A DNA stretch of 6,025 bases from a virus (IMGVR_UViG_2681813226_000023:1-6025), one strand, 5' to 3'; counted from the first letter of the stretch, positions 4,325 through 4,450 are shown. The notes: a model not told the origin generated them from the letters alone. Translations and numbers: made by a program.

Positions 4325-4375
4325 GGGGGGGGAGTGTTCCGGCCGGAAAGTCGATCACCCTGGACACCGCCCCCC
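4325..4375. repeat. GC-rich imperfect hairpin (G8 ... C6 arms) enclosing a perfect 12-bp palindrome TTCCGGCCGGAA; candidate cosN-like or packaging-initiation site
   Basis: G8 tract 4325..4332 and GTG 4334..4336 pair with CAC 4365..4367 and C6 4370..4375; palindrome TTCCGGCCGGAA at 4337..4348. No downstream U-tract on either strand, so not a canonical terminator. Confidence 0.45.
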
Positions 4376-4405
4376 GTCTCATTCGTAGAAAATTTTGCTT
4401 TTCAA

Positions 4406-4428
4406 AAAAGTTACACGAAAAGTTACAC
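4406..4428 (+). repeat. Tandem direct repeat, 2 x AAAAGTTACAC with 12-bp period; candidate TerS-binding (cosB/pac-like) elements
   Basis: AAAAGTTACAC at 4406..4416 and 4418..4428, non-coding, 23 bp upstream of the terS-like start codon. Confidence 0.5.
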
Positions 4429-4450
4429 CCCCTCAAAACGAGGTTTTTGC

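Follow-up and report, generated by a model that had tools for sequence, protein, structure and literature searches.

The DNA directly upstream of the small terminase gene (terS) of an E. coli island raises the question of whether the island carries a packaging signal of its own and, if so, of what kind. The initial annotation of the window, by which we mean the whole stretch of 6,025 nucleotides that was analysed, had proposed a lambda-like site in which a GC hairpin with a palindromic nicking site is followed by tandem repeats and terS. The literal features on which it drew (a G8 run, the palindrome, a C6 run, two repeats, and the ATG of terS at 4451) are all located where it had placed them. 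We put a probability of roughly two-thirds on a different reading, that positions 4325 to ~4682 form the two-module cos site of a PICI-type island, in which a phage-homologous core of the HK97/HNH type is joined to the island's own TerS repeat array.

The Island and Its Packaging Module

The window covers the right two-thirds of a 9.3-kb PICI-type island situated between cspD and clpS (9,288 bp between 17-bp direct repeats, AATGGTGTAGTTAATTT, in strain CV261). Copies of ~95% identity or more were detected in 220 of 5,426 complete E. coli genomes and are all chromosomal; O157:H7, O103:H2, and O121 strains are among the listed carriers, the host type being Shiga-toxin-producing E. coli. The island encodes an integrase, an HTH regulator, a DUF4222 protein, and a D5-type primase, and its small size, primase with iteron origin, att repeats, and absence of lysis and tail genes agree with the gene content of Gram-negative PICIs. 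Beyond the terminator (Table 1), two small ORFs are followed by terS, the 53-aa ORF, and a capsid homologue; this module is 95–98% conserved even in island copies with a different replication module. The only morphogenesis genes in the island are terS and the capsid homologue, and no terL, portal, protease, or HNH gene was found between attL and attR. Since there is no HNH gene, HNH would have to be supplied by a helper. A 53-aa coiled-coil ORF occupies the upstream slot where the phage relatives and a related island (L082) have HNH. Small proteins without known function are encoded directly upstream of the repeats and terS.

Two established types of satellite do not accommodate this gene content. 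A cf-PICI is ruled out by the absence of its own terL, HNH, portal, protease, and connector genes between attL and attR, and an Rpp-type cos PICI, which has no terS of its own, is disfavored by the full-length TerS that the island encodes.

Table 1. Positions of the proposed packaging-site elements and neighboring features, numbered from the first nucleotide of the window
Feature	Position	Strand	Comment
D5-type primase	1487-3235		
Iterons CCTCTACCC	3240-3480		Presumed origin of replication
Terminator	3850-3867		Upstream of the packaging module; the only convincing one
G-run (G8)	4325-4332	+	Leftmost conserved part of the probable cos core, facing what would be the end of the preceding genome
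Spacer, 31 nt	4333-4363	+	Left part variable, containing TTCCGGCCGGAA; right part CGATCACCCTGG semi-conserved in enterobacterial classes
Palindrome TTCCGGCCGGAA	4337-4348		Perfect, 12 bp
Predicted cleavage core ACAC / CGCCCCCCGT / CTCA	4364-4381	+	Predicted functional counterpart of cosN
Predicted 10-nt 3' cohesive end CGCCCCCCGT	4368-4377		From homology to the Lys8385Vzw cos
C6	4370-4375		Inside the predicted cohesive-end 10-mer
A/T tract GAAAATTTTGCTTTTCAAAAAAG	4388-4410	+	Between cut site and repeats; probable DNA-bending element (putative role)
Upstream tandem repeats, 2 x AAAAGTTACAC	4406-4416, 4418-4428	+	12-bp period, 100% match; predicted TerS sites
terS	4451-4939	+	162 aa; ATG at 4451, the same start as in RefSeq
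Inverted repeat pair inside terS	4608-4618, 4620-4630	-	Predicted second half of the TerS recognition region
Direct repeat triple inside terS	4648-4658, 4660-4670, 4672-4682	+	Predicted second half of the TerS recognition region
53-aa ORF	4951-5112		Stand-alone copy of a TerS C-domain, directly downstream of terS
Capsid homologue	5102-6025		

Homology to a Phage cos Site with Mapped Ends

When positions 4300-4460 were compared with phage genomes by BLASTN, only 4325-4404 produced matches, with 79–81% identity. The matching phage DNA is the interval between HNH and terS in Stx1a, Stx2a, Stx2c, and related lambdoid phages, in which the gene order is HNH, terS, terL, protease-capsid fusion, and portal. 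These phages include 1717, 2851, and phi330 (genus Pankowvirus), and the region is also present in BP-4795, YYZ-2008, and Lys8385Vzw. For Lys8385Vzw, PhageTerm analysis of virion reads gave 10-nt 3' cohesive ends with the cos sequence CGCCCCCCCT (PMC7946995). The GenBank record of this phage ends with ...GGACACCGCCCCCCCT and begins with CTCACGCAGAG, so that the break in the record falls exactly at ACACCGCCCCCCCT / CTCACGC. Positions 4325-4404 thus have as homologue a phage cos with mapped ends, and by this homology the cohesive end of the island would be the 10-mer that contains the C-run. A full-text search for the cohesive-end strings returned unrelated papers only.

The likeness to the Stx and lambdoid phage sites comprises the G-run, the spacer, ACAC-CGCCCCCC(G/C)T-CTCA, and the A-tract over 80 bp. 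In both, the site lies directly upstream of a Terminase_2-type terS, and repeats begin at about +30. The two differ in the repeats themselves, which in the Stx phages are TGTTAAC and confined to a 240-bp spacer, whereas those of the island are AAGTTAC and partly inside terS; they differ also in that the island has no adjacent HNH, terL, or portal gene.

A comparable arrangement is seen in HK97, where a G9 run precedes the terminal CGCCGCCAAA of the right end by ~32 nt, with HNH to the left and terS to the right of the cos. Cleavage in HK97 is enhanced by the HNH protein gp74 and leaves 3' overhangs of 10 nt; the TerS site, at +15 to +29 downstream of the cut, includes an A-tract on which binding depends (PMC11331095). 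The combination of HNH and an HK97-type TerL has been tied to cos cleavage (Kala 2014, as cited in PMC11331095). Island and HK97 are alike in the distance from the G-run to the 10-mer, in 10-mers that both start with CGCC, and in a TerS site, predicted in the island, just past the cut and before terS. In contrast, their flanking sequences differ, and HK97 TerS belongs to another family and uses its channel and arms to recognize one 15-bp site (PMC11331095), whereas the island protein has an N-terminal HTH and is accompanied by a multi-copy array.

With lambda, the island shares the order and logic of cosQ-cosN-cosB-Nu1, that is, a termination-side element, a nick site, a bend with TerS repeats, and then terS. 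The G-run corresponds by position to cosQ, and the upstream repeats, as predicted TerS sites, would be analogous to the R elements of cosB. However, there is no sequence similarity, the lambda overhang is 5' and 12 nt rather than the 3' overhang of 10 nt predicted here, and, unlike in lambda, an HNH protein is involved in the relatives of the island site. A lambda-type cos was rejected, as the region contains no symmetric cosN related to GGGCGGCGACCT and TerS is of the Terminase_2 type and not Nu1. The order of elements that the initial annotation had recognised as that of a packaging site, with a shared cleavage element, TerS-specific repeats, and terS, is supported by the phage homology and by the conserved anatomy described below, but the family that it had named is not: the relatives are HK97-like and HNH-associated.

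Conserved Anatomy of the Core

Fifteen representative loci were compared, consisting of the window, 13 relatives, and HK97. The relatives came from two routes, homologues of TerS (54–62% identity) and a scan of IMG/VR with the core sequence. Because the core sequence itself retrieved most of the consensus loci, the consensus carries an ascertainment bias from which six loci, obtained by TerS homology or whole-region BLAST, are free. All 15 loci have one plan: G7-9, a spacer of 28–31 nt, ACAC, a 10-mer, CTCA, and mostly an A-tract. The G7-9 run is found in 15/15 loci at 28–31 nt upstream of ACAC whatever the spacer sequence, which varies by class; spacer length is 30–31 nt in 14 loci and 28 nt in L218. 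The run varies from 7 to 13 G among near-identical copies, and a run of at least 8 G or C is uncommon, occurring in 8% of Markov-simulated windows.

ACAC is present in all 14 loci other than HK97, and CTCA in 11 of the 13 readable on that side (locus L093 ends at the 10-mer), with departures in L111, L191, and L218. The usual 10-mer is CGCCCCCCNT, replaced by CTCGCCTTCT in a Hafnia prophage (L084) and by GGCGCACTCC in L088. A tract of the AGAAAAAAT type at ~+9 to +17 is found in most loci and is kept across TerS classes; in the island, GC content falls to 0.275 at 4380-4419. In the alignment free of this bias (A2), no columns are invariant other than those of the G-run, ACAC, CTCA, and GAAAA, and these elements flank both predicted nick positions. 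The ACAC..CTCA element is not rotationally symmetric, and the cleavage core sequence occurs once in the island. The core has the appearance of a target for a conserved nuclease module (TerL plus HNH). Among the island contigs recovered from IMG/VR and metagenomes, none begins or ends at the site.

By themselves, the GC hairpin and the palindrome do not exceed chance expectation. Folded as DNA, 4318-4382 gives −12.2 kcal/mol (z = −0.34; 73 of 200 shuffled sequences fold as well), and as RNA the fold over 4318-4455 is no better than that of shuffled sequence (z = −1.6). The minimum-free-energy fold pairs the G-run with the C-run, but the two do not covary: L084 and L088 have lost the C-run and kept the G-run. 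Chance alone would give ~1.6 perfect 12-bp palindromes per window, and 79% of Markov simulations contain at least one. The palindrome is confined to near-identical copies of the island and is missing in five relatives (L082, L084, L086, L088, and L091), and in a metagenomic island variant (L221) its place is taken, precisely between island-type flanks, by the spacer of the Stx phages. This replacement indicates that the palindrome is dispensable and that island and phage cores recombine. An Rfam search for known RNA families gave a sub-threshold miRNA match only.

Repeat Arrays That Follow the TerS Class

To the right of the core, AAGTTAC occurs eight times in the window, seven of them within 4408-4680; 0.65 occurrences are expected in the whole window, and none of 200 shuffled sequences reaches eight. 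The seven copies form three sets in 12-bp phase, at 4408 and 4420 on the plus strand, 4610 and 4622 on the minus strand, and 4650, 4662, and 4674 on the plus strand. The feature consequently reaches ~4682, inside terS and beyond the end at 4450 that the initial annotation had given it. The two upstream tandem copies noted there are real; they are, however, only part of an array of ~275 bp that lies on both sides of the terS start, with five further copies inside the gene.

Loci with the core belong to several terS classes, four of which have recognizable repeats. The island TerS group, consisting of the island, L082 with its own HNH, L086 to L089, and the Hafnia prophage L084, has AAAAGTTACAC both upstream of and inside terS, and every TerS relative at 54–62% identity keeps it in both places. 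The Hafnia prophage is complete, with the order HNH, terS, terL, protease-capsid, and portal. The Stx phages have five copies of TGTTAAC, all between core and terS, and no AAGTTAC in 12 kb. A low-GC class, which may be from Pasteurellaceae, has GTTAAA in a tandem array of three upstream of terS and in three more copies within the gene, at +158, +184 (inverted), and +206; these internal positions nearly equal those of the island repeats (+159 to +224). In the third enterobacterial class the motif, GTAAAC / GTTTAC, is weak: the locus has two matches, a number attained in 26 of 200 shuffled sequences, which is not significant alone, and no weight was placed on this motif. Two further loci, a divergent Terminase_2-type locus (L191) and a GC-rich element (L218), have the core and no clear repeat; the TerS of the latter presumably resembles HK97 gp1.

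Although the distance from core to terS is ~70 nt in the island and ~240 nt in L082 and the Stx phages, the first repeat is found at +29 to +32 in all four classes, and at +29 or +30 in L082, L084, and L086. The repeats look like the TerS-specific part of the site, and the combination of class-specific repeats with a shared core suggests that specificity is modular. The repeats go with the class of TerS. The proposal in the initial annotation that the region is the island's own packaging signal is most likely correct. That TerS binds AAGTTAC is suggested by co-occurrence across a few classes.

Constraint on the DNA of the Internal Repeats

The internal repeats encode a (V-T-x-x) run at TerS residues 53–78, which raises the possibility that they reflect a property of the protein. 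In five homologues with 54–62% identity, all 21 Val-Thr dipeptides are encoded by GTT-AC(A/C) or GTA-AC(T/A). Lys-Val-Thr is encoded as AAA-GTT-AC(A/C), i.e., AAAGTTAC, in 11/11 occurrences, and a further nine Val-Thr dipeptides have the codons GTA-ACT, which read AGTTAC on the opposite strand. The TerS of Stx phages has no such Val-Thr run, and its valine codons are mostly GTG. In the low-GC class, GTTAAA at the same positions in the gene is encoded by LK, LT, and VK. The fixed synonymous sites, together with different residues in the GTTAAA class, indicate constraint on the DNA. We rejected a protein-level (VTxx)n explanation on these grounds and because the upstream island copies are noncoding or in another frame. 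Copy number changes by units of 12 nt among close alleles (P0003 and P0004).

The Small Terminase and Candidate Helpers

The island TerS matches Pfam Terminase_2 (E = 1.4e-10; an N-domain of the SF6/SPP1 type) and PHROG 641 (E = 1.5e-43), and among PDB structures its N-domain is matched by the TerS proteins of SF6 and Pam5. In an AlphaFold2 model, helices at residues 5–56 and 96–147 are separated by a stretch with pLDDT below 50 at 57–84, and the codons of the internal repeats coincide with this predicted disordered linker. A search of genome contigs with the TerS alignment gave nearly exclusively distant N-domain matches; the useful TerS relatives were obtained by look-ups of exact proteins.

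The island and Stx-phage proteins are 46% identical overall, 60% in the N-domain, and 62% in the C-terminal domain. Since the N-domains are still 60% identical, a difference in DNA specificity between the two is no more than plausible. At its extreme C-terminus (..PPTDLKH), the island TerS is like the protein of the Hafnia phage (..PAPQLTKH) and unlike that of the Stx phages (..PPPRLVVNNDNEGNG); the TerL of the Stx phages is 65% identical to that of the Hafnia phage. Given the Hafnia-like C-terminus, it is uncertain whether the island TerS is compatible with Stx-phage TerL, and a different phage may be the actual helper. Stx-type phages are candidate helpers, and such candidates are abundant: of 5426 E. 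coli genomes, 1244 contain a phage-type cos together with terS, in as many as seven copies each, and in one IMG genome (2923307698) a phage-type cos (L157) was shown to be present alongside the island (L096).

Alternative Explanations

Four other explanations of the region were weighed against the two-module cos site. The one that survives best, though it is unlikely, is that the site is an inactive relic, the cos and terS leftovers of a decayed element that are no longer used for packaging. The missing terL, portal, and HNH genes would fit such decay, as would a stop codon in the terS of one low-coverage metagenome copy (L229). Against it, terS is intact in the island, and in homologues with 54–62% identity the repeats keep their synonymous positions. 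The island also retains the full PICI gene set of integrase, regulator, primase with iteron origin, and att repeats, and it is present at ~95% identity or more in 220 complete genomes. Conservation of the packaging module at 95–98% despite differing replication modules and recombination of the core with the phage core are likewise at odds with a relic.

Two explanations are less probable still and about equal. One is a headful pac site of the SPP1, SF6, or SaPI type, at which TerS binds repeats flanking a pacC-like cut and no defined ends are produced. The Terminase_2 N-domain and its match to the SF6 structures point this way, as does the combination of a Terminase_2 protein with repeated boxes, here in two clusters that bracket the 5' part of terS, reminiscent of pacL and pacR in SPP1; moreover, SaPIs with a TerS of their own are pac-type. 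What argues against headful packaging is that the core is homologous to a site with mapped and defined 3' cohesive ends and that the phage relatives have adjacent HNH and HK97-type TerL genes, the pair associated with cos cleavage.

The other is that the AAGTTAC repeats are regulatory operators, acting for instance in autoregulation of terS, at transcription or translation, or for one of the small upstream proteins. A gap of 22 nt separates the upstream pair from the start codon, which puts the pair near the ribosome-binding site, and small proteins are encoded directly upstream, both of which would suit an operator. However, no promoter-like site was found in 3800-4700, copies are conserved ~160–230 nt inside the gene, and the distance from core to repeats is fixed at +29 to +32 even though that to terS is ~70 nt in one case and ~240 nt in the other.

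A G/C-clamped hairpin or cruciform, with TTCCGGCCGGAA as a symmetric nicking site as in lambda cosN, is highly improbable and was rejected, for although the palindrome and the complementary G- and C-runs exist and pair in the minimum-free-energy fold, that fold is no better than in shuffled sequence and lacks covariation, the palindrome is chance-expected, not conserved, and replaced in L221, and the homologous phage ends map at the C-run.

A Model for Packaging of the Island

The two-module cos site suggests how packaging could proceed. Module 1 (4325-4381), comprising the G-run, the 31-nt spacer, ACAC, CGCCCCCCGT, and CTCA, would be the cleavage core, and module 2 would consist of the A/T tract and seven AAGTTAC copies, of which two precede terS and five are in the codons of its linker. 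The island TerS, as an oligomer, would use its N-terminal HTH domains to contact the array, with the A/T tract assisting in bending, and its C-domain would recruit the TerL and HNH of the helper to the common core. Helper TerL with HNH would then nick on either side of 4368-4377, generating 10-nt 3' cohesive ends, and packaging would start and run rightwards into terS. The TerS of the helper would ignore the island array, and the island TerS would ignore that of the phage.

Partial parallels exist among known satellites, whose strategies in the papers examined comprise use of the helper's cos (P4 and SaPIbov5), a pac-type TerS (SaPIs), Rpp, and cf-PICIs. EcCICFT073 was shown experimentally to keep the cosQ and cosN of lambda and to have a different cosB that is read by an Rpp-TerS complex (PMC6739421). 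The island resembles cos PICIs of this type (Fillol-Salom 2018, 2019) in that the cleavage elements of the helper are kept, cosB is different, and packaging would be redirected. EcCICFT073, however, has a lambda-type helper with a 5' overhang and an adaptor, Rpp, that re-programmes the phage TerS, whereas the island is of the HK97/HNH type and has a complete TerS of its own. With the SaPIs that encode TerS, which package by the headful, pac-type mechanism, the island would have in common that a satellite TerS uses the TerL of the helper. SaPIbov5, which uses the cos of its helper and has no terS, would be alike in having an HNH-dependent cos phage as helper, and it likewise encodes a capsid homologue (Ccm).

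The satellite literature that we examined does not list a cos satellite that combines a TerS of its own with matching repeats. Tentatively, then, the island may represent an undescribed form of piracy, in which the HK97/HNH core of the helper is kept, the repeats are replaced, and a complete matching TerS is provided; the 53-aa ORF might serve as a decoy against the helper terminase, and, Stx-converting and related lambdoid prophages being the likely helpers, the production of Stx phages could be lowered or reshaped.

The analysis provides a base-level model of an HK97-type cos in a satellite, with its G-run, predicted nicks at 4368/4377, and AAGTTAC array. The same plan applies to the cos sites of the long-tailed Stx1a, Stx2a, and Stx2c phages, whose TGTTAAC repeats seem to be undescribed. 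The core is common to enterobacterial and low-GC elements and to at least two families of TerS, and specificity that can be exchanged on such a core would be useful for the design of packaging signals. If Stx-type phages are indeed hijacked through a swapped pair of TerS and repeats, this would add a strategy to those known for satellites and could affect the yield of Stx phages.

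Variation in the Probable cos Core of the Island and in Related Phage Cores

The G-run at 4325-4332 varies in length from 7 to 13 across otherwise near-identical island and phage cos copies (L094-L102, L198, and others); the element itself is conserved, and its length changes by homopolymer slippage. A metagenomic island variant, L221 (ERZ1673734 NODE-1866), carries in the counterpart of window positions 4333-4361 the spacer between G-run and ACAC that is typical of the Stx phages, TATCATCCGGCGAAAAAAACGATCGCCACGG, within flanks of the island type, which indicates that the cos cores of islands and phages recombine. 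In the PPompW prophages LC567820, LC567822, LC567826, LC567828, LC567836, and LC567839, similarity to the phage cos region stops at the G-run, and ISEc20, an element of the IS110 family, is annotated at that point. The G-run of these prophages would thereby be split from the cleavage core.

Genes Flanking the Predicted cos Site and terS

Features accompanying the predicted cos site and the small terminase gene, terS, are collected below.

Features of the island identified in the window
Feature	Coordinates	Strand	Remarks
Iteron array	3240-3480	n/a	Just 3′ of primase gene; dense direct and inverted CCTCTACCC / GGGTAGAGG
Predicted coiled-coil ORF, 53 aa	4160-4321	+	Product ends ..VEGLISLLGEQ; stop 3 nt before G-run
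53-aa ORF	4951-5112	+	Directly 3′ of terS
HK97-fold capsid homologue, 307 aa	5102-6025	+	Pfam Phage_capsid, E = 1.3e-6

The predicted coiled-coil ORF of the island occupies the position at which the phages encode their HNH protein. Homologous C termini precede the cos core in relatives from the island TerS group, ..VEGLISLLGE in L086/L087 and ..VDGLVSLLGED in L088/L089. On the other side of the core, the ORF that follows terS matches small terminases exclusively in their C-terminal core (PHROG 641 positions 89-125, E = 3.5e-7), and 38% identity over 32 residues was found with the C-domain of a TerS of the enterobacterial class 3 (L108). No alignment was obtained between this ORF and the Stx-phage TerS. 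Its product ends in an acidic tail, and counterpart ORFs of 50-51 aa are each found after terS in L087, L088, and L089. One possible role for the protein is to interfere with TerS or to act as a decoy of it. The capsid homologue shares 24% identity with residues 291-625, the capsid portion of the protease-capsid fusion in Stx phages, and is similar to the Ccm-type proteins that redirect capsid size in cos SaPIs.

Within terS itself, a copy from a food metagenome (L229; coverage 4.4) has seven substitutions to T, six from A and one from C. All seven lie in or adjoin the repeat units inside the gene, and one creates a stop codon; the pattern may reflect sequencing error or decay of this copy.

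Presumed Replication Origin and Right-End Repeats

The iteron array is presumed to be the island origin of replication. Repeats also fill the right end of the island, which extends beyond the window in locus L001: to the right of the capsid gene, ~800 bp leading up to attR (14126-14917 of L001) have no annotated gene and are full of recurring short palindromic units, such as CGATATGGGGATCACCATATCGGG, together with two copies of a ~90-nt segment.

Mosaicism of Island Modules

When metagenome contigs (L221, L224, L226, L228, and L230) were compared with L001, the packaging module, comprising the small ORFs, cos, terS, and the capsid homologue, was 95-98% identical in several of them, whereas their replication module was either different or just 88-92% identical. 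This disparity indicates modular mosaicism among the islands. In L088 (3986-5341), a relative of the island module, made up of terS, a 50-aa ORF, and the gene for a 321-aa protein, has a gene encoding a TerL nuclease domain downstream of it, suggesting that some relatives may hold more of the packaging machinery.
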